From the IMG/VR virus record IMGVR_UViG_3300045988_164919, positions 64,001 to 104,717 of that record: 40,717 bases of DNA; one strand, 5' to 3'. Positions within the stretch are counted from its first letter, which is position 1. Every line of letters begins with the position of its first letter. This DNA is from a virus. Under the pieces are notes generated by a model that was not told where the DNA came from, did not search any database, and worked only from the letters and a program-made list of their open reading frames with translations. Shown here in pieces: positions 3,244-39,017 of the stretch. The translations under genes and the position numbers were made by a program.

Positions 3244-3648
3244 ATATCATAATTGGCTATAGACCCTTAACTATCTATGATTTAAATACGCCACAATTAC
3301 CATGAAGCTTAGCGATACCAATTATTTTAAAAACAAGACTCATTGAAAAGCCAAAATAAAAACGCGGAATTTAGCTTACTAAACCAGCTAAAAAGAAAAA
3401 ACTTTTCAAAATATACTTTATTTTCTTTATTATACTTTTTCATCTATTATTTGATAAGTAAGTATTGTAGAGCCTTTGTAGGCAAAAGTTTGCTGAAAAT
3501 GAGTCTTAATATATGAGGGGCGGAAAGGAATACCTTGTTGTCTTTGCCCTCGACAAGGTTTAACCGTATTATACGAAAGTAGGGGTATGTTAATGTAAGA
3601 TTAGTTTAAACATCATCGCCACGGGAAGGCTCTTACTTGATAACGCAT

Positions 3649-3728
3649 AGGAGCAAGGGATTCGAACCCTGGACGTGTAGCTACAATTAGTTTTGGAGAC
3701 TAACCCAATCGACCACTCTGGCACTCCT
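3649..3728 (-). tRNA. tRNA with a Trp-type anticodon loop (CCA) and an unusually long variable region.
   Basis: T-arm CCAGG-GTTCGAATC-CCTTG. Anticodon stem TTAGT/ACTAA with loop CTCCAAA, which is identical to the E. coli tRNA-Trp loop. It is followed by 14 nt (TTGTAGCTACACGT). Acceptor AGGAGTG/TGCTCCT with G-U pairs. No CCA is encoded. Confidence 0.4.
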
Positions 3729-3736
3729 ACATATAA

Positions 3737-4173: not shown

Positions 4174-4374
4174 TATTTTCTCCTTAACAATTTTAACAAA
4201 GCCCTAAAATCATTTGCTGGATTTGAACCAACTCTAAAAAATTTTTGCAGAATTTCTTATTTATCCTATTAAAAGTTGCTGTGTGGGCTTTTCATAAAAC
4301 ATTATTAATTATACTCATTTAATCAATTAGCATTACCCAAGATACGCCCCGTGGAGGCTTGATTAATGTATCTC

Positions 4375-4447: not shown

Positions 4448-4505
4448 ATATTAACAAGACAATTTTTATACGTTGCGCTACCAATTACGCTATATCCGAT
4501 CTTCG

Positions 4506-4575
4506 ACCAGACAGTAGGACTCGAACCTACAACACACGGCTCCCAAAGCAAATTTATAATTGCTGTATTGTCTTT
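4506..4575 (-). tRNA. Non-canonical tRNA-like gene. The anticodon loop is 8 nt (UUAUAAAU) and the acceptor is weak.
   Basis: A good T-arm (GTAGG-TTCGAGT-CCTAC) and a 3' acceptor strand TGTCTGG are present. Anticodon stem AGCAA/TTGCT encloses an 8-nt loop. The 5' acceptor (AAAGACA) pairs only 5 of 7. Confidence 0.3.
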
Positions 4576-4655: not shown

Positions 4656-4660
4656 AAATA

Positions 4661-4725
4661 TGATGGTTATAAAACTTAATCTAATGCAGGCATCAGACTA
4701 ATAGAACGCTCCATCAAGTTCTATG
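4661..4725 (-). repeat. Upstream repeat copy 1 (about 55 nt) 5' of the tRNA at 4582-4655. Candidate tRNA promoter or processing element.
   Basis: ttataaaacttaatctaat...cagactaatagaacgctccatcaagttctat is nearly identical to 4985-5045. It contains the inverted repeat atagaac/gttctat. It ends about 5-10 nt upstream of the tRNA 5' end on the transcribed strand. Confidence 0.5.
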
Positions 4726-4759
4726 CACCAGTTGAGTTGTATGTTTTCCGCGAGTGCGG

Positions 4760-4984: not shown

Positions 4985-5045
4985 ATTTGATAGTTATAAA
5001 ACTTAATCTAATCAGATTAATAGAACGCTCTATCAAGTTCTATAC
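4985..5045 (-). repeat. Upstream repeat copy 2, 5' of tRNA-Ala.
   Basis: ttataaaacttaatctaatcagattaatagaacgctctatcaagttctat matches the element at 4661-4725 apart from an 8-nt indel and 2-3 substitutions. Confidence 0.5.
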
Positions 5046-5075
5046 TTTAAAATTGTTTACATAGGAAAAAGCATG

Positions 5076-5625: not shown

Positions 5626-5947
5626 ATATAGTCTATTTAATTAAGCTGCCAAGAAAAATTAAATAGACTTTTATAAAAATCCTCACTGGGTATGGAGGGC
5701 ATATTAGACTGGCTATTACAGTAGGGCTAATAAGGTAGACTCGCTTGAATTTCACAATATTTGGTTCAACACCAAATTAAATAAAACTATATACATAATT
5801 TCTCATGATATAATCTTATTCCATTACTCTTTAAGGTTCTCTAATGGATGAACTACGAGAATTTTGCTATCTTATACTAATTGCGCGTTTTCATATAAGA
5901 ACCATTTAACGTCAGCGATGCTCTATGAAATTTCTCAAACTTGACCT

Positions 5948-6080
5948 GGTGCGCCAGGCGGGGATCGAACCCGCGTTGCCCTGCTTATGGTGCGGAATAT
6001 TGGATTTGAACCAATACATTAAAATGCTACTTACATCAATCCCACAAAGGCAGGTGCCATACCACTTGGCCACTGGCGCA
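5948..6080 (-). tRNA. Interrupted tRNA. The host is tRNA-Lys(UUU)-like (loop CUUU|UAA) and carries a 58-nt nested mini-tRNA-like insertion in the anticodon loop.
   Basis: Minus strand: GCGCCAG-TG-GCCA-AGTGGTA-TGGC-A-CCTGC-CTTT[insert]TAA-GCAGG-GCAAC-GCGGG-TTCGATC-CCCGC-CTGGCGC-A-CCA. The acceptor, D, anticodon and T stems are all perfect only across the insert. Confidence 0.45.
5989..6046 (-). other. Nested mini-tRNA-like element inside the anticodon loop of the tRNA at 5948-6080.
   Basis: GTGGGAT-TG-...-ATTGG-TTCAAAT-CCAAT-ATTCCGC-A-CCA. It has its own 7-bp acceptor (with G-U pairs), a T-arm and a 3' ACCA. Its T-arm and 3' end are near-identical to those of tRNA-Val at 5549-5625. It has no D or anticodon arms. 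Confidence 0.4.
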
Positions 6081-6430
6081 TATACGCATTTTAGAGGTTC
6101 CGGACCCTCTTGAGCAGCATCACTCAAATAAGATTTTGTCACCTAATTTTAAAAATCTTATTAAAAACAAACCGGTTTTATAGCTAAACCTTTAACTCCC
6201 TTTCCGTTTTTACTTATATGTCAAGAAACAACCAAAGAGTAAGTATAAAAAGACAACATATGAAGAATTTGTTTATAGACAAGCTTCAAACACTCGTCTT
6301 GCGGTCATGTTATTTTATAATCAAGTAAGTAATAACTTCAACCGCGTTTCTTTAACTTAAATAACCTTTAATAATAGTCCTATATTAAATAATTAGTTAT
6401 GGGCGACTATTATTTCCCAGCTTTAATTAA

Positions 6431-6505
6431 TCCTTCTATTGGAATTGAACCAATACCTCCGCCTCTTTCAGGCAGCATGCTTCCATTACACCAAGAAGTA
6501 ATATA
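6431..6505 (-). tRNA. Non-canonical tRNA-like gene. The anticodon arm is aberrant (loop UGAAAGA, no U33).
   Basis: T-arm ATTGG-TTCAATT-CCAAT. Acceptor TACTTCT/AGAAGGA (6 of 7 pairs). The CTGCC/GGCGG stem encloses TGAAAGA. This may be a pseudogene or specialised RNA. Confidence 0.25.
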
Positions 6506-6658: not shown

Positions 6659-6660
6659 AT

Positions 6661-6725
6661 ATGGTGGAAAGAAGTATTTCACCTTTTATAGCGCGCTTCT
6701 CCCCGTTCCCGCGCTACCCCTCTCC
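6661..6725 (-). ncRNA. GC-rich hairpin element ending in ...CTTTCC-A-CCA, 3 nt upstream of a tRNA. Possible tRNA-like minihelix or processing element.
   Basis: A 7-bp GC stem TAGCGCG/CGCGCTA (loop GGAACGGGGAGAA) sits in an otherwise AT-rich region. The 3' end is ACCA. It has no T-loop consensus. The function is speculative. Confidence 0.2.
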
Positions 6726-6909
6726 CAATTAGCTTGATTACAAGAGGATTTTACTATGAAGTTCATCATAGCTAACTATAAAATTTCTTTATAGCTATAC
6801 ATTAAAACCCGATTTCCCTTTGCCTCAGTTTATTTTTAATTGGTCTATTGCCAACGGCAGGTGACTAATCTGCCTAGTTCAAATCGGAAACCCCATGTAT
6901 AAGACCAAT

Positions 6910-6986
6910 TGGTGGGACAGGGAGGTATCGAGCCTCCATCCTTTGGTTTTTCAGACCAATGCTCCGACCTCGTAAGCTACTGTCCC
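6910..6986 (-). tRNA. tRNA-Phe(GAA), CCA encoded.
   Basis: Acceptor GGGACAG/CTGTCCC. Anticodon stem TTGGT/ACCAA with loop CTGAAAA gives GAA. T-arm GGAGG-CTCGATA-CCTCC. Confidence 0.6.
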
Positions 6987-7311: not shown

Positions 7312-7460
7312 TATTGGAATATGGTGCTCCCGTCGGGATTTGAACCCACATCTGGCGATTTGGCCCAAGATGTTAGATTTGAACTTACATCTTTCTTGCG
7401 CATAGACTATTTTGCCATTTAAACTAATCTTGGATAAGTCGCCGGCTCTGACCAATTGAG
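7312..7460 (-). tRNA. Interrupted tRNA. The host is tRNA-Ile(UAU)-like (loop CUUAU|AA) and carries a 73-nt nested tRNA-like insertion in the anticodon loop.
   Basis: GCTCTCG-TA-GCTC-AATTGGTCA-GAGC-C-GGCGA-CTTAT[insert]AA-TCGCC-AGATG-TGGG-TTCAAAT-CCCG-ACGGGAGC-A-CCA. The anticodon stem GGCGA/TCGCC pairs only across the insert. Confidence 0.45.
7351..7423 (-). other. Nested tRNA-like element (73 nt, with its own acceptor and CCA) inside the tRNA at 7312-7460.
   Basis: CCAAGAT-TA-GTTT-AAATGGCA-AAAT-...-GTAAG-TTCAAAT-CTAAC-ATCTTGG-G-CCA. It has a perfect 7-bp acceptor, a D-arm-like stem, a T-arm and G-CCA. There is no convincing anticodon arm. Precise excision of this unit leaves a perfect 7-nt host loop CUUAUAA. 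Confidence 0.4.
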
Positions 7461-7484
7461 CTACGAGAGCATTTATTTGATTTC

Positions 7485-7526
7485 TTATTGATTACTTATA
7501 TATTATATTATATTTTTTTAATTTTT
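7485..7526 (-). promoter_or_regulatory. Conserved promoter motif copy upstream of the interrupted tRNA at 7312-7460.
   Basis: Plus strand cttatatattatattatatttttttaattttttcaaattaag. Minus strand reads CTTAATTTGAAAAAATTAAAAAAATATAATATAATATATAAG. Confidence 0.45.
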
Positions 7527-7561
7527 TCAAATTAAGAAATTTACCCAAGACTTTTTATACT

Positions 7562-7636
7562 TGGCTCCAAGGAAGGAATTCGAATCCTTATTTTCAGAAT
7601 TAACTCTGATGAATTATCCAGTTATTCGACCACGGA
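7562..7636 (-). tRNA. tRNA-like gene with an ambiguous UUAA-centred anticodon loop (6 or 8 nt). CCA encoded.
   Basis: T-arm AAGGA-TTCGAAT-TCCTT. Acceptor TCCGTGG/CCTTGGA (one mismatch), G, CCA. D-arm GAAT/ATTC. Anticodon region TCAGA-GTTAAT-TCTGA. Confidence 0.35.
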
Positions 7637-7664
7637 AAAAAGTTTAAGTTGCTGTAAAAGTCTT

Positions 7665-7712
7665 TTTATATAAATATTATATAATATTTTTTATTAAAAA
7701 TCAAATAATTAT
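7665..7712 (-). promoter_or_regulatory. Conserved promoter motif copy.
   Basis: Plus strand tatataaatattatataatattttttattaaaaatcaaataattatttta, a family member upstream of the tRNA at 7562-7636. Confidence 0.4.
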
Positions 7713-7741
7713 TTTATTCAAACAAGACTTATTTGGTTTGG

Positions 7742-7830
7742 TTCCGCTGGGTTTAACCGCTTCCCTACCTCCGCCATATAATGGTGGGGAGGGCAGGATT
7801 CGAACCTGCGTAGCATTCGCGACGGATTTA
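7742..7830 (-). tRNA. Permuted or fragmented tRNA locus. The T-arm, 3' acceptor and CCA segment lies upstream of an acceptor-5' plus D-arm segment.
   Basis: In minus-strand transcript order: ...TCCGT-CGCGAATGCTACG-CAGG-TTCGAAT-CCTG-CCTCCCC-A-CCA then a TTATAT linker then G-GCGGAGG-TA-GGG-AAGCGGTTAAA-CCC-A-GCGGA-AC... GCGGAGG pairs 6 of 7 with CCTCCCC. GCGGA pairs with the upstream TCCGT. Confidence 0.3.
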
Positions 7831-7869
7831 CTGTCCATTTTTTGCTGTTAAAGTCTTTATTTTCTTTAT

Positions 7870-7912
7870 TTTGTATATATATTATATATTAATTTTTATT
7901 AAATATCAAATT
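7870..7912 (-). promoter_or_regulatory. Conserved promoter motif copy.
   Basis: Plus strand ttgtatatatattatatattaatttttattaaatatcaaattt, immediately upstream of the 7742-7830 tRNA locus. Confidence 0.4.
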
Positions 7913-18119: not shown

Positions 18120-18899
18120 TTAAAAGCGGTCAATGTTATTTACAGCATCATCCATTTTATCATGCCAGAGAAAAATATCCTCCAAAGGGTCAATACAATT
18201 AAAAAAGATAATATTATGCTTATTAATAAATCTATCACAATGATAATGACCAAAGAGCCATACATCATATGTAATCATATTCTTAATTTCTTCAAGCCAT
18301 TCTTCCATAGAGGTATCTACAGTAGATTGATCTACTACTGAAAGAAATTTATCAACTGGCCTAAGAGAATAAGGGCAGGTGTGTGATAGTACAAGATCAA
18401 AATGCTTATTAGTTTGTCGAATAAGCATTTCAGCATCAACTTTTTCTTTATCACTTAATTGTTCATCTTCCCACCAAAGCAGATTGTTTTTAAGACGATA
18501 ATATTTATCAACAGAATAAGCACCACCAATAACTAATGTACGATATTCTCTATCTTCGGTTTTAAGATAATAAATCCCGTAATTATCAAAATATCTAATC
18601 AGAGGGTGAGTCGGCTCATACCATACATTAGCCTGAACATTGCTATCCCAAATACGCTCTATACCTTCAACATTTTCAGGACGTACTTCATGATTGCCAT
18701 GCACGCAATAAATAAAATATCCAAACTGGCTTGCATATTCTTTCTTCATATTATCTCTGAATGCACTACCAGTATTAAAACCGCAGTCTCCAAGGATAAT
18801 AATTGCATAGTCTTTTGGATTTAAAATTCTAAACATTCTTGCATTAAGCCATGTGAAATCACCATGACAATCGCCTCTAATCAGATAGTCCTTGAACAT
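18120..18899 (-). CDS. Calcineurin-like metallophosphoesterase (lambda-phosphatase / 2',3'-cyclic phosphodiesterase superfamily), 259 aa.
   Basis: It has the motifs GDCHGD (GDxHG), ILGDCGFNTG (GDxxDRG-like) and GNHE, in canonical order. Confidence 0.65.
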   Translation of the reverse strand: MFKDYLIRGDCHGDFTWLNARMFRILNPKDYAIIILGDCGFNTGSAFRDNMKKEYASQFGYFIYCVHGNHEVRPENVEGIERIWDSNVQANVWYEPTHPLIRYFDNYGIYYLKTEDREYRTLVIGGAYSVDKYYRLKNNLLWWEDEQLSDKEKVDAEMLIRQTNKHFDLVLSHTCPYSLRPVDKFLSVVDQSTVDTSMEEWLEEIKNMITYDVWLFGHYHCDRFINKHNIIFFNCIDPLEDIFLWHDKMDDAVNNIDRF

Positions 18900-18912: not shown

Positions 18913-19104
18913 TTACGTATTTTCTTCTTTAGCCAGCTCTTCCTTTAATTCTTCTACTTTTTCTATAACTGCACTAAGCACAACAGCTTGAGCCCCAAAA
19001 CTGGTAAAATGTTCAGTCAACCATTTACCAAGATCATCAAAATTGTTTTCAATTTCTTCAATATCTCGACTATCAATTTCAATAGTCATATTATCTTCAG
19101 ACAT
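18913..19104 (-). CDS. Small acidic protein, 63 aa.
   Basis: Track ORF MSEDNMTIEIDSRDIEEIENNFDDLGKWLTEHFTSFGAQAVVLSAVIEKVEELKEELAKEENT. Confidence 0.45.
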   Translation of the reverse strand: MSEDNMTIEIDSRDIEEIENNFDDLGKWLTEHFTSFGAQAVVLSAVIEKVEELKEELAKEENT

Positions 19105-19912
19105 TTAACATTTCCTTTACAATTCTTTTTTTCATAGTAAGATAAACAATCTTATTCATAAAATCTTCAAGTTCTTCATTACCTTCATCCTTGGTCTTAG
19201 AACAATAATCATCAGCTACTCTTGTAATATTATTAATAGCAGTATTTGCTACAATTCGTGCAGTTTCAAGATCATAGTGATAATTTTTTACATCAAGAAG
19301 ATAATCACCCATTGGAGCCTGAAGGCAATCTGCATATTTAACCCCATCAATATAACGTCCAAGATACTGTTCAATACGAAGCAAATGCATAAGCTGCTTA
19401 CTATCATAACCATATGTATCAATCAGATGAGTTTTAGTAGGATATCTATGTTCCATTGCATGATATTTTTCCATAGCAATACCCTTCATTGTCTTAACTG
19501 CCTTGTAAGGATTATAACGTGCAATAGCTTCACGCTCATTAAGCAGTGCCTGCCACTCATTCCAATACACGCTTGATGCCATTTTATAAGGTGTGAAGAT
19601 ACATTCAAGATATGCCATATTCTGTTTCTTCAAACAATCAATGAACAAACGAATATCTTTAAAATCAATGTGTTCATCATTAGGAAGAATCTTGGTATAA
19701 GATACTGGCTTCTTATTTAGTACAATATCTTCAAATGAAGGAAGAACAATAAGTCGGGTATCTACATCAGACGATTGAGTATCAAGACCATAGTTCTGGC
19801 TACCATAAGCCATTAAACTAACCCAATTTTCTCCTTTAACATTAGCTGCTTCTAAATGAGTTTCTACCTTATCCATAACCCATTTATCTGAATGGTAATT
19901 CATAATTATCAC
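19097..19912 (-). CDS. Pol-beta-superfamily (minimal/kanamycin-type) nucleotidyltransferase, 271 aa.
   Basis: It has the motif AYGSQNYGLDTQSSDVDTRLIV (hG[GS]x9-13Dh[DE]h). Confidence 0.55.
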   Translation of the reverse strand: MIIMNYHSDKWVMDKVETHLEAANVKGENWVSLMAYGSQNYGLDTQSSDVDTRLIVLPSFEDIVLNKKPVSYTKILPNDEHIDFKDIRLFIDCLKKQNMAYLECIFTPYKMASSVYWNEWQALLNEREAIARYNPYKAVKTMKGIAMEKYHAMEHRYPTKTHLIDTYGYDSKQLMHLLRIEQYLGRYIDGVKYADCLQAPMGDYLLDVKNYHYDLETARIVANTAINNITRVADDYCSKTKDEGNEELEDFMNKIVYLTMKKRIVKEMLNV

Positions 19913-26398: not shown

Positions 26399-26987
26399 AA
26401 GAAATAGAACCTTCCGGCTGCTCACTCAATTGTGCAGTTTTAGTACAATCATATTTAACAAGTTCAACAGTGCCATCTTTATTAACTACACACTTATAAA
26501 TATGTTTAAGTTCAGCATCATTTTCAACTGTTTGCTTAATAAGTTGGGCACTACTAATTGCCGCCTTACGAATTGCCTCTTGGCTTTCTTCTTTAAGTGC
26601 CTGGCAATCTTCTCTCATAAGATTGCAGAATTCAAGACCCTTAAGCAGTTCTGCTTCCTGTTTTGCTTTAGTCTTTTTATTTGTCCACCATTGAATAAAT
26701 TTACGGTATTCCTTATAAGAACCAAAATACACATAAAATCTGCTTTCGCCAATAATATTTTTTTTATCAATTTGATAAGAAATGCTACTACCATTAATAC
26801 ACCATTTATCAGGCTTAATAGCAGAATATTTCATTACTTCATCGAAGGTAAGTTCAACAGTTTTTTCATGCCATTTAATAGCCTCTTCTTTAAAACCTTG
26901 ATAATTTTCCCAGTCTTTGAAATAGCTAAATACTGTAAAACAGATAATAGCAAATACAACAAAAATACCTAAAACAATCAAAAACAT
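26391..26987 (-). CDS. Membrane-anchored protein, 198 aa.
   Basis: Track ORF with an N-terminal TM helix (MFLIVLGIFVVFAIICFTVFSYF) and a soluble C-terminal domain. Confidence 0.55.
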   Translation of the reverse strand: MFLIVLGIFVVFAIICFTVFSYFKDWENYQGFKEEAIKWHEKTVELTFDEVMKYSAIKPDKWCINGSSISYQIDKKNIIGESRFYVYFGSYKEYRKFIQWWTNKKTKAKQEAELLKGLEFCNLMREDCQALKEESQEAIRKAAISSAQLIKQTVENDAELKHIYKCVVNKDGTVELVKYDCTKTAQLSEQPEGSISCL

Positions 26988-27532
26988 TATTTATTATCCT
27001 CCTTCTCCTGTCGCAAGTCATGGTCTTCGCCATCATAGATTTCACGATATTTAGTAAACAGAGAACCATCATTGTAATAATATCTAATATTATTCCAACC
27101 ATTATAATGGTCAGTCAAATTAGGCCAGTCTACAATACGTGCCTGCCGTTCAAGTTCCTGCTGCGGCACTACTCTATGTCTCTTGGAGTTCCATTCCTTT
27201 GAATTTTCTACGCTGGCGATAATAACCATAAGCTGATAACTATCGAAATGGGGGAAACGGCTTCTGATTTCTTCTCTCTGTCCAAGAGTCAAACAATTAG
27301 TATCAATGATAATATCTGCATTGTCCATTTCTGCACAATGTACAATCTGATATAATGTTTGCCAGACTTCAAACTTATGACGGCGGTTGCATTCATCGCC
27401 ATTAAAGACAGCGTACAATTCATCAGGGTTTACATATCGAATGTGATTCATCTTTGCGAAGGATTTCGCGAATGTAGTCTTTCCATTTGCACTCAAGCCG
27501 CACATCATATATAGAGTCGCCATCAACTTCAT
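26987..27532 (-). CDS. P-loop kinase (polynucleotide kinase / AAA-like NTPase), 181 aa. The true start may be an internal Met.
   Basis: Walker A GLSANGKTTFAKSF, and Walker-B-like IIIDTN. The first roughly 85-110 nt overlap ORF 27423..27851 in another frame. Both frames are open there. Confidence 0.6.
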   Translation of the reverse strand: MKLMATLYMMCGLSANGKTTFAKSFAKMNHIRYVNPDELYAVFNGDECNRRHKFEVWQTLYQIVHCAEMDNADIIIDTNCLTLGQREEIRSRFPHFDSYQLMVIIASVENSKEWNSKRHRVVPQQELERQARIVDWPNLTDHYNGWNNIRYYYNDGSLFTKYREIYDGEDHDLRQEKEDNK

Positions 27533-37667: not shown

Positions 37668-39017
37668 TTACAGTTCCTCCGCGATCGTTTCATCTACTGG
37701 AGTAGTATCAGCAACCGCAATGCCTTCAATGCACTTGAAGGAGAAATTCTTGATCTTATATGCCGTGAAAGAGGGCTTATCAACCAGACGCACAACGACA
37801 CCTTCACGCACATGTCGCGGATCAATCGGTTCAGGACCATCATAATACTGTTCTGCCTTATTCATAATCCATTCGCCTGCGGTGATAGTATCATCATTTT
37901 CAGATGCCGGATGCTCGGGGATATAGCCACGCCATTCAACAGGAACGAATTTTACGCCCATCTGTTCACAACGATACCGAGTATATTCAGGAGAATATTC
38001 CACAGTATAACCATCATGAGTAGTTAGAGTCATACGATAAACATAAAAATCGTTCTTCGGAGCAGTAACACCAGTAGGGTCGCAGCCATAAGAGAAGGTA
38101 GTCATATCGCCATATTGCTTAATGAATGCCTTATCGTTGGTTTTCTTATTGGAAACAGAACCCATAATCGGCACGCCATCATCAGTAAAACCAATAATTT
38201 CAGCATAACAGGTTTCGCCTTCATGCAGCTTGCCTTTAATTGCTTCATGGAAATGCTTACGGAATTCATTAGAACCATAGAAGCCGCCATCATAGCTGAC
38301 TAGCAGAGTGCGGCGAGTGCCGTCAATGTAATCATACTGATAGATAGGTTTGCCATCTTTACGAGTAATCTTATCCCACAGAGTACGCTTATAGCCCTTG
38401 AGAACAGGTAGATAGCCGATTCGTGCAGAAGTACCATGGAGCTTACGAGTAATTTCAATAAGGTCGCCAGGCTTGAATGCATTAAGGTTATAAGCAAGCT
38501 GGGCAGTATCAATATGCTCTTTGAACAGAGGAGCAATCGGATCCTTATGCTTGCGAGTCTTGCTCACATTAGAGTTATTGGTATTATTCTGCTTTCTAGT
38601 ACGCGGAATATACTTATTGCAGATAGGATGACCATTAACTTCGTTAATAATGTCGCCCACCTTTAGATAAGCACTTGCATTATCGTCATAGCAATAATTG
38701 AAACAGCTAATCGGCAGATACAGACCATCGGAACGTTCGCCACGCAGTCTGATAGCAGTAATATTACGCTTATCTACTTCCATATAACCAGTGTCAGCAG
38801 TCCCATCGGGAAGCTTGCGGCACAGATGATTGGCGATGCAAAATTCGAGGGAAAGCTGGAGGTCGCAGGGGAAGTAGACACCAATATCGCCAACCTGCGT
38901 ATCAATGGAAACGCAAGTATCATTGCCGAAGAAAGTTGCGATGTAGAGCTTGTCTGCATTAGGGTGTGCCCGCAGCTCTTTAACTTTTACAATATAACCA
39001 CAGTGATTAATATCCAT
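37668..39017 (-). CDS. ATP-dependent RNA ligase (Rnl2/Rnl5-like nucleotidyltransferase) with an N-terminal tRNA-binding-like OB domain, 449 aa.
   Basis: N-terminus GYIVKVKELRAHPNADKLYIATFFGNDT resembles Myf/EMAP/Trbp111 tRNA-binding OB domains (HPNADKLYV consensus). The ligase motif I is LIEITRKLHGTSARIGY (KxHG lysine-adenylate motif as in T4 Rnl2 EKIHGTN). The + strand ORFs 37812..38027, 38115..38303, 38436..38666 and 38826..39062 are antisense. Confidence 0.65.
   Translation of the reverse strand: MDINHCGYIVKVKELRAHPNADKLYIATFFGNDTCVSIDTQVGDIGVYFPCDLQLSLEFCIANHLCRKLPDGTADTGYMEVDKRNITAIRLRGERSDGLYLPISCFNYCYDDNASAYLKVGDIINEVNGHPICNKYIPRTRKQNNTNNSNVSKTRKHKDPIAPLFKEHIDTAQLAYNLNAFKPGDLIEITRKLHGTSARIGYLPVLKGYKRTLWDKITRKDGKPIYQYDYIDGTRRTLLVSYDGGFYGSNEFRKHFHEAIKGKLHEGETCYAEIIGFTDDGVPIMGSVSNKKTNDKAFIKQYGDMTTFSYGCDPTGVTAPKNDFYVYRMTLTTHDGYTVEYSPEYTRYRCEQMGVKFVPVEWRGYIPEHPASENDDTITAGEWIMNKAEQYYDGPEPIDPRHVREGVVVRLVDKPSFTAYKIKNFSFKCIEGIAVADTTPVDETIAEEL

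Follow-up and report, generated by a model that had tools for sequence, protein, structure and literature searches.

A conserved circularly permuted tRNA-Tyr-like unit in a phage tRNA array, probably a YrlA-type Y RNA

Introduction

Can a tRNA locus in which the 3′ half precedes the 5′ half be anything other than a damaged gene? The question is raised by a locus in the tRNA array of a phage fragment, the stretch of 40,717 nucleotides (nt) that spans positions 64,001 to 104,717 of IMG/VR record IMGVR_UViG_3300045988_164919 and that is called the window below. The original prediction, made without database searches, placed at window positions 7742-7830 a tRNA that may be circularly permuted, in the manner of the permuted tRNA genes of the alga Cyanidioschyzon, or else fragmented by a rearrangement. 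Our analysis of this locus and its relatives indicates that it encodes a complete, permuted tRNA-Tyr-like cloverleaf enclosed by a short stem and the motif ACAGCAA. It is probably a Y RNA of the YrlA type that works with a phage Ro60-like protein.

Structure of the permuted tRNA-Tyr unit

The unit occupies positions 7857..7724 of the minus strand and thus extends on both sides beyond the region first proposed. On this transcribed strand, a block that runs from the anticodon loop through the variable and T arms to the 3′ acceptor strand and ACCA precedes a second block that starts with TTATAT-G and continues through the 5′ acceptor strand and the D arm to the 5′ side of the anticodon stem, which confirms the inverted order of the halves. 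The leader strand of a terminal stem, AAGACTT (7857..7851), pairs with the trailer strand AAGTCTT (7730..7724); this stem, which closes the unit, had been missed at first. Next to the leader strand are the single-stranded motif ACAGCAA (7848..7842), a predicted protein-binding element, a short A-run, and AUGGA (7838..7834), a leader copy of anticodon-stem nt 27-31 that could pair with 7822-7826 in an alternative local hairpin. A clean 7-nt anticodon loop had been described as not obvious, and yet one lies directly 5′ of the strand TCCGT: CAGTAAA (7833..7827), with the Tyr anticodon GTA and with A33, not U33. It is followed by TCCGT itself (7826..7822), the 3′ strand of the anticodon stem, which pairs with 7743-7747, and by a long class II variable arm (7821..7810), the T arm GCAGG-TTCGAAT-CCTGC (7809..7793), the 3′ acceptor strand CCTCCCC (7792..7786) and the discriminator A with an encoded CCA (ACCA, 7785..7782). 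The linker TTATAT-G (7781..7775) closes the acceptor stem and is where, by analogy, RNase P cleavage and trimming of the 3′ end are predicted. Downstream of it come the 5′ acceptor strand GCGGAGG (7774..7768), TA, the D arm GGG-AAGCGGTTAAA-CCC (7765..7749; in RNA, GGG-AAGCGGUUAAA-CCC), a single A, the 5′ strand of the anticodon stem, GCGGA (7747..7743), and an A-rich spacer of 12 nt (7731-7742) before the trailer.

Both pairings read from the sequence at the outset are correct: GCGGA pairs with TCCGT, and GCGGAGG with CCTCCCC at six of the seven positions of a 7-base-pair (bp) acceptor stem. The mismatch is C2:C71, and a pyrimidine-pyrimidine mismatch at 2:71 is conserved in the subgroup of homologues to which the window belongs. 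The consensus nucleotides of the T loop and D loop are present. As encoded (7720-7860), the locus obtains no tRNA call from ARAGORN or Rfam. With the two halves joined in silico, ARAGORN recognises the window unit and 14 of 16 homologues as tRNA-Tyr(GTA); the inputs for the other two were truncated. The exact exon junction of the Tyr unit is ambiguous, because GGA is repeated on both sides of it.

Conservation and covariation

Comparison with related loci shows that the permuted layout recurs. A scan of IMG/VR detected the junction pattern in 17 phage contigs, which are 65-200 kb long, and a pattern combining leader and anticodon matched 24 IMG/VR contigs, 23 of which proved real. The same pattern gave five real cases in contigs of metagenome-assembled genomes, among 55 mostly chance genome matches. 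The layout is present in cultured phages as well: a blastn search of deposited phages detected an unannotated homologue in Rhizobium phage RHph_Y65, with ~80% identity over 82 nt (variable arm, T arm, acceptor and D arm).

When 14 distinct sequences were parsed segment by segment, compensatory changes were found to keep every stem of the cloverleaf, the acceptor included, and CCA directly follows the discriminator in all 14. In a MAFFT alignment of 18 sequences we scored the terminal, anticodon (5′-half strand with nt 39-43), T and D stems. In these four helices 98.1% of the cells are paired and 10 of the 20 pairs show changes on both sides; none of 500 shuffles matches the observed pairing, and slid controls are at most 51% paired. 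The anticodon stem (7822-7826/7743-7747) shows compensatory changes and is paired in all of its 70 cells, and the T arm is 100% paired, with two-sided changes at three pairs. The 7-bp terminal stem (7851-7857/7724-7730) is 96% paired and also has three pairs that change on both sides; its covariants in homologues include AGACCUU/AAGGUCU, AAGAUGUAU/AUACAUCUU and AAGACACU/AGUGUCUU. This leader/trailer stem is a plain covarying helix of 7-10 bp, and 12-24 unpaired nt separate it from the tRNA body. ACAGCAA is identical in all 18 aligned homologues. The variable arm keeps its stem and tetraloop in the diverged homologues L018, L022, L024 and L039.

The permuted Tyr unit is therefore conserved under selection, far beyond chance. 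For this reason we reject the alternative offered by the original prediction, a tRNA gene broken by rearrangement: it is the permuted cloverleaf itself that is maintained, with compensatory changes, and the locus is not a remnant.

In most relatives the anticodon loop is the canonical CUGUAAA, and A33 is found in the window and in several deep lineages. U33 is near-universal in tRNAs. The leader copy AUGGA is conserved in sequence, and changes in its partner are uncompensated (three mismatches in 14 sequences). The conformer with AUGGA:UCCGU and the one that uses the 5′ half are nearly equal in energy (-27.4 versus -26.8 kcal/mol); in L015, L022 and L039 it is the 5′-half strand, not the leader copy, that stays complementary to nt 39-43. 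Phages with the permuted unit also encode an ordinary tRNA-Tyr.

The ACAGCAA cassette and its cargo

The combination of stem and ACAGCAA is shared with sibling units. On the minus strand of the 4.3-kb array, ACAGCAA occurs four times against 0.26 expected, and 98 distinct cassettes were collected across the fetched loci, with the signature 5′ (A/U)AG(A/G)C…helix…(0-2 nt)ACAGCAA … helix…G(U/C)CU(U/A)G 3′. Under a loose cassette criterion, shuffles of the whole window give a mean of 0.9 and a maximum of four, against four observed; since this test is weak, the comparative data carry the argument for the cassette. A search of the non-coding part of the array for UUGCUGU, the base-pairing partner of ACAGCAA, found none.

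Besides the Tyr unit (unit A), the array holds on its minus strand unit B (7547..7664), in which stem and ACAGCAA surround a cargo that is colinear and tRNA-like and whose anticodon loop has 6 nt, unit C (4456..4574), with a permuted tRNA-Pro(UGG)-like cargo that lacks an encoded CCA, and unit D (4198..4291), in which the bracket encloses a lone T-arm-like hairpin. Unit C matches the Rfam family YrlA at 29 bits (E = 0.003), and it is this weak match that gave the YrlA lead. YrlA RNAs are bacterial and phage Y RNAs whose paired ends form the Ro60-binding stem and whose body mimics a tRNA in the order variable arm, T arm, acceptor stem-loop, D arm (Chen et al. 2014, PMC4201824). The Rfam YrlA matches on sibling units are weak but specific. 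The diverged L018 homologue of unit C covaries; the acceptor linker of this Pro unit is 63 nt, against 1-7 nt across the Tyr homologues.

Across the loci, the cargo comprises permuted Tyr, Pro(UGG) and Gly, a Phe broken in the variable region, colinear tRNA-like RNAs, a lone T arm and AT-rich non-tRNA sequences of 26-70 nt. In L020 and L047 the tRNA-Tyr is colinear and the cassette is a hairpin insert within its anticodon stem. The break points differ, falling at nt 29/30 in Pro and Gly(GCC), at 31/32 in Gly(UCC) and at an ambiguous position in Tyr, and the spacing to the cassette varies too. The Pro and Gly(GCC) units have the appearance of exon junctions, in that the 5′ half supplies nt 27-29 and the leader supplies nt 30-31.

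Two further observations concern the colinear units. The 6-nt ‘anticodon’ loops of the colinear cargos contain UUA (GUUAAU) or UCA (AUUCAA), the sites being window positions 7547-7664 (minus strand) and a unit at minus-strand offset ~2200 of L067; related phages have CUA suppressor tRNAs and calls with 4-base anticodons. Taken together, these loops, suppressors and anticodons are hints of stop-codon recoding in this phage group. Directly upstream of the cassette-interrupted colinear tRNA-Tyr there is a full-length ROOL RNA, both in L047 (1374-1978, minus strand, 343 bits) and in L020 (7982-8394, minus strand, 263 bits); the window has no ROOL RNA.

Linkage to Ro60-type genes

The RHph_Y65 homologue sits 90 nt upstream of a gene with a TROVE (Ro60) domain. 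In Klebsiella phage KP13-16, a permuted Tyr unit bracketed by ACAGCAA is among five cassettes directly after a gene that combines DUF2828 with DUF7788/vWA, and in 14 related metagenomic loci such a DUF2828/DUF7788-vWA gene, detected by tblastn, adjoins the Tyr unit. Among 80 loci centred on the DUF2828/vWA gene, 58 have one or more ACAGCAA cassettes on the strand of the gene and no more than 3 kb from it; the cassettes in these loci number 132 on the same strand and 32 on the opposite strand, and 26 in shuffled sequence. Cassettes, some of them permuted and tRNA-like, also flank the Ro-like gene in Mycobacterium phage Snenia and in the Escherichia coli Felixounavirus DE7. The adjacency of cassette and Ro-like gene spans unrelated phage families with hosts among Actinobacteria, Proteobacteria and probable Firmicutes. 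Of 50,697 deposited phage genomes, 710 have a member of the Ro-like gene family, which in mycobacteriophages carries the label ‘Ro-like RNA binding protein’.

The Pfam TROVE family does not match the DUF2828/vWA protein, and a PDB sequence search with the Ro-like profile produced a vWA match only. In an AlphaFold (AF2) model with a predicted local distance difference test score of 71, the top 12 PDB matches are Ro60, Rsr and phage TROVE structures, covering the full length with 530-600 aligned columns and E values from 2e-7 to 2e-3. The modelled protein has the architecture of Ro60, a ring of HEAT repeats and a C-terminal vWA domain with a MIDAS, whose DxSGSM motif is invariant. An hhalign comparison with a TROVE protein gave E = 2e-4. 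The kinship with Ro60 was seen by fold comparison alone, sequence search having given vWA only.

KP13-16 also encodes (L082, 7532-8791), just past its array of tRNAs and Y-like RNAs, a gene of the TnpB/IS605 OrfB type with a Cas12f-like TNB domain.

Genomic context in the window

A survey of open reading frames (ORFs) and annotation across the 40.7 kb places every gene on the minus strand. Proteins with PHROG or Pfam matches comprise a tail fibre, an RNA ligase, an RlaP nucleotidyltransferase, a metallophosphoesterase, an AAA_33 kinase and an S-adenosylmethionine synthetase; the tRNA array extends from ~3.6 to 7.9 kb on the minus strand. Genes for RNA healing and sealing are scattered through the window, all on the minus strand: the RNA ligase (PF09414 plus a PHA02142 OB domain) at 37668-39017, the AAA_33 P-loop kinase at 26987-27532, RlaP at 19097-19912 and the calcineurin-type phosphoesterase at 18120-18899. 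A PDB sequence search for the class of the ligase gave no match. No integrase adjoins the permuted Tyr unit.

The Tyr unit has its own sigma-70-like promoter (7881..7909, minus strand; TTGATA-17-TATAAT, 11 of 12 consensus matches), and promoters of this type also stand upstream of unit B and of the tRNA-Ile gene. They belong to a stereotyped block, TTGAYW-17-TATAAT within AAAAAATATTATATAATAT, seen at 7881-7909, 7676-7704 and 7502-7530 (minus strand), with similar blocks at ~7040 and ~5530. Recurrence of this block before single small-RNA or tRNA units implies many short independent transcription units.

The array has other unusual components, all on the minus strand. Two tRNAs, at 7325-7470 and 5950-6079, carry nested inserts directly 3′ of the anticodon; the pair consists of an Ile-UAU tRNA, with 72 nt inserted, and a Gln-UUG tRNA, with ~57 nt. 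The inserts fold like mini-tRNAs, with a 7-bp acceptor stem (CCAAGAU/AUCUUGG; GUGGGAU/AUUCCGC), T arm, discriminator and CCA, which suggests that RNase P and 3′ processing excise them before ligation. A repeat of ~70 nt, AUAGAACUUGAURGAGCGUUCUAUUA…UAGAUUAAGUUUUAUAACYAUCA, lies just 5′ of two tRNAs (~4990-5060 and ~4660-4730); its complementary segments interleave like a pseudoknot, and it matches no Rfam family. Three non-coding stretches of 250-340 nt between tRNAs (~5630-5950, ~6090-6430 and ~6660-6910) are fairly GC-rich, with clear local helices and with no ORF or Rfam match, and could possibly be further structured RNAs. Odd tRNA calls fall at 6430-6500 and 3645-3730: a tRNA-Phe(AAA) with a weak score of 38 bits, and an 86-nt tRNA-Trp(CCA) that a tRNA-Sec model fits better, at a sub-threshold 38.8 bits.

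Discussion

The fold of the Tyr unit, the conservation of this fold and the genetic linkage to Ro-type genes are directly supported by the data presented above. They lead us to consider that the unit is probably a YrlA-type Y RNA, a circularly permuted mimic of tRNA-Tyr that works with a phage Ro60-like protein. A mimic is preferred to a decoding tRNA because the same bracket holds non-permuted and non-tRNA cargo and Ro60-type genes are its neighbours; the ordinary tRNA-Tyr encoded by the same phages and the presence of A33 also fit a mimic better.

We infer how the RNA binds protein, how RNase P processes it and what its biological role is along the following lines. The locus would give rise, from its own promoter, to a phage non-coding RNA of ~135-150 nt in which the 5′ leader and the 3′ trailer pair as a short terminal stem beside ACAGCAA. 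Stem and motif together are the predicted handle for the divergent phage Ro60 protein (DUF2828 plus vWA). The rest of the RNA would form a complete, permuted tRNA-Tyr cloverleaf, its acceptor stem closed by ACCA-UUAUAU-G and its halves joined by the anticodon stem. The unit is a probable RNase P substrate by analogy with the YrlA of Mycobacterium smegmatis, an RNA with an acceptor stem of 7 bp that RNase P cuts and to which CCA is added (PMC4201824): cleavage 5′ of G1 and 3′ trimming that exposes the CCA would produce a two-piece, CCA-ended tRNA mimic, with the acceptor, anticodon and terminal stems holding the pieces together. Bound to Ro60, such a look-alike may serve as a tether or gate between the Ro ring and enzymes that bind tRNA or nucleases; it may also be a decoy during infection.

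Several points weigh against this interpretation. No Ro-like gene, of either the TROVE or the DUF2828 kind, lies within the 40.7-kb window. In the three closest relatives of the window, L001, L003 and L007, the Ro-like gene (99-100% identical copy) is 42-47 kb from the unit, a distance that exceeds the reach of the window, and we infer from these relatives that the phage of the window has the gene itself. The linkage could also arise in part from Ro-like genes adjoining tRNA arrays that happen to contain cassettes. The Tyr unit does not match the Rfam YrlA family even at E <= 5, and none of the units reaches the gathering score of RF02553 (69 bits), the scores of sibling and related units being 26-40 bits. 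The sequence GNCGAA(N0-1)G near the 5′ end of YrlA is the proposed Ro60 contact (PMC4201824); this published motif is absent from the leader of the Tyr unit, which instead has ACAGCAA 3′ of the leader strand. By thermodynamics alone the cloverleaf is not favoured (-26.8 versus -37.5 kcal/mol for the minimum free energy structure; shuffle z = -1.9), so that the case for the fold rests on the comparative evidence. Finally, the canonical anticodon loop, the class II variable arm, A73 and the encoded CCA seem to be kept more strictly than a mimic needs.

Other identities were tried for the locus and rejected. A hand search over nt 29-38 for a bulge-helix-bulge (BHB) splice motif could draw no 3-nt bulge, 4-bp helix and 3-nt bulge around nt 29-32; the sole leader-trailer helix lies 12-24 nt from the junction. 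Permuted and colinear cassettes gave no Rfam match, even at E <= 5, to hammerhead, twister, pistol, hatchet or hepatitis delta virus (HDV)/theta ribozymes. The leader CUUUAACA fits the boxA antiterminator of rrn operons and lambda in unit A only, and the match is regarded as coincidental because the same segment is a covarying helix in the other units. The core sites do not fit an integron attC or a mobile insert flanked by target-site duplications. For a permuted transfer-messenger RNA (tmRNA), ARAGORN reported no tmRNA and RF04321 (tmRNA_permuted) scored 15.9 bits against a gathering score of 47. An attP/attB integration remnant was dismissed as well, the window having no integrase and the unit covarying.

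Among the competing explanations, one dispenses with Ro proteins. Many cassettes do lie in tRNA arrays with diverse cargo, and those of the window's lineage are ~45 kb from the Ro-like gene; stem and ACAGCAA could then serve phage tRNA operons in processing, in stability or as a binding element for another protein, and the permuted Tyr a nicked-tRNA look-alike, a decoy for host defence nucleases or sensors that target tRNA. The RtcR damage sensor binds engineered permuted tRNAs, which mimic nicked ones (PMC10159003), and a conserved anticodon loop, with its A33 variants, suits such a role. We nevertheless regard this as unlikely, since cassettes occur directly beside the Ro-like gene, on the same strand, across unrelated phage families and since their architecture is that of the known Ro-bound YrlA RNAs. 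As for a remnant without function, whether a leftover of a tandem tRNA-Tyr junction or a 3′ tRNA half displaced by att integration, the order of 3′ half, CCA, spacer and 5′ half does resemble the boundary of tandem tRNA genes, and the BLAST matches of the 3′ half in mycobacteriophages correspond to attP sites with neighbouring integrases. Compensatory changes in every stem, leader/trailer included, over more than 25 diverged contigs effectively refute it, and a unit with its own promoter and no adjacent integrase in the window speaks against it too; we give it almost no credence.

A further alternative to a Y RNA is a permuted gene for a decoding tRNA-Tyr. In this case, RNase P and trimming would free the ends while the cassette clasps the halves, the anticodon-stem flaps would be removed, and the nick at nt 29-32 would be healed and sealed by the phage kinase, phosphoesterase and RNA ligase, a route of splicing that needs no BHB. 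The idea retains some weight because the anticodon loop, the identity elements and the CCA are well kept and because sibling units, Pro and Gly(GCC), resemble exon junctions. The rejoined halves make a canonical tRNA-Tyr with conserved GUA in a 7-nt loop, A37, class II arm, A73 and CCA, the 5′-half strand rather than the leader copy keeps its complementarity to nt 39-43, and the colinear versions of L020 and L047 carry the cassette hairpin within the anticodon stem. The window moreover encodes an RNA ligase, RlaP, metallophosphoesterase and AAA_33 kinase; however, a counter to host anticodon nucleases would explain these RNA-repair genes equally well. There is no BHB, splicing endonuclease or match to a known ribozyme family, junction position and cassette spacing vary, and colinear and non-tRNA cargo is bracketed in the same way. 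Coexistence with an ordinary tRNA-Tyr, the replacement of U33 by A33 in the window and several deep lineages, and the tight linkage of the units to Ro60-type genes likewise make a decoding tRNA quite unlikely. In a wider form, which we hold to be decidedly improbable, all ACAGCAA-bracketed units would be true split or permuted genes giving functional tRNAs for Tyr, Pro and Gly through cassette clasp and phage sealing, possibly with the Ro60-like ring as a chaperone. If true, permuted tRNA genes would for the first time be known beyond eukaryotes and Archaea, together with a BHB-independent pathway of tRNA splicing.

Ro60/Y-RNA particles are conserved from bacteria to humans, and the RNA partners of phage Ro proteins are barely charted. 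Read as a Y RNA, the locus represents a concrete and widespread candidate class of such partners, in which a short stem with ACAGCAA carries complete, isoacceptor-specific tRNA look-alikes. Cassettes stand beside the partner gene in phages of Mycobacterium, E. coli and Klebsiella and in many gut phages. Both tRNA finders and Rfam miss these genes, which therefore fall in a blind spot of annotation. The questions opened concern the targeting of the Ro ring to tRNA-handling machinery, the use of phage tRNA decoys against tRNA-cleaving immunity and the possible conversion of these RNAs into working tRNAs.

Comparison with known systems

The permuted tRNA genes of Cyanidioschyzon merolae, prasinophytes and some Archaea resemble the Tyr unit in having the 3′ half first on the same strand, a short linker, a canonical cloverleaf on rejoining, and a complementary leader and trailer. 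Colinear relatives that bear inserts exist in both cases, as expected if permutation arose from tandem duplication. The geometry proposed in the original prediction is right, the circular permutation of a complete tRNA-Tyr-like cloverleaf, and the algal analogy is not supported: in place of a BHB there is a plain stem with ACAGCAA, in the setting of a bacterial virus without splicing endonuclease. The break, moreover, interrupts the anticodon stem on its 5′ side (nt 29-32) and does not coincide with nt 37/38 or with any other site set by a BHB. The Tyr unit also encodes its CCA and shows linkage to Ro60-type genes.

The two-piece tmRNA encoded by permuted ssrA in alpha-proteobacteria and cyanobacteria has the same order of T arm, 3′ acceptor strand with CCA, linker and 5′ acceptor strand. 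It works as two base-paired pieces without ligation. The Tyr unit differs in being short (~135 nt) and in lacking a tag reading frame and pseudoknots.

tRNA-mimicking Y RNAs beside phage Ro-like genes are already known. Thermus phage phiLo encodes phiRo60, which with the RNAs Yrl1 and Yrl2 recruits the host polynucleotide phosphorylase (PMC12135203). Directly upstream of its tRNA array, phage Bas63 encodes the Ro60-like gp130, which counters the Ppl defence; the authors of that work proposed that Y RNAs are among the ‘tRNAs’ (bioRxiv 10.1101/2024.10.10.617714). The common theme is a phage protein of the Ro60 fold with small structured RNAs encoded beside it; the RNAs are defined by a CGAA motif in phiLo and were not identified in Bas63. 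The accounts of these two systems describe neither the ACAGCAA cassette nor permuted isoacceptor-like tRNAs that are complete, and in the literature searched we found no description of the ACAGCAA handle, of such permuted tRNAs with anticodon loop and encoded CCA, of the variety of cassette cargo or of the colinear insert forms.

The closest counterpart is YrlA itself (RF02553). Unlike YrlA, the Tyr unit retains the whole anticodon stem-loop, the anticodon being that of Tyr, and has its CCA encoded, not added; its bracket also carries Pro-, Gly- and Phe-like and non-tRNA cargo, and its proposed partner belongs to the DUF2828 branch of Ro60, encoded outside the window. It shares with YrlA the pairing of its 5′ and 3′ ends, a body in the order variable arm, T arm, acceptor-like stem-loop and D arm, a 7-bp acceptor stem resembling that of the M. 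smegmatis RNA and, in relatives, a location on the same strand near a Ro60-type gene.

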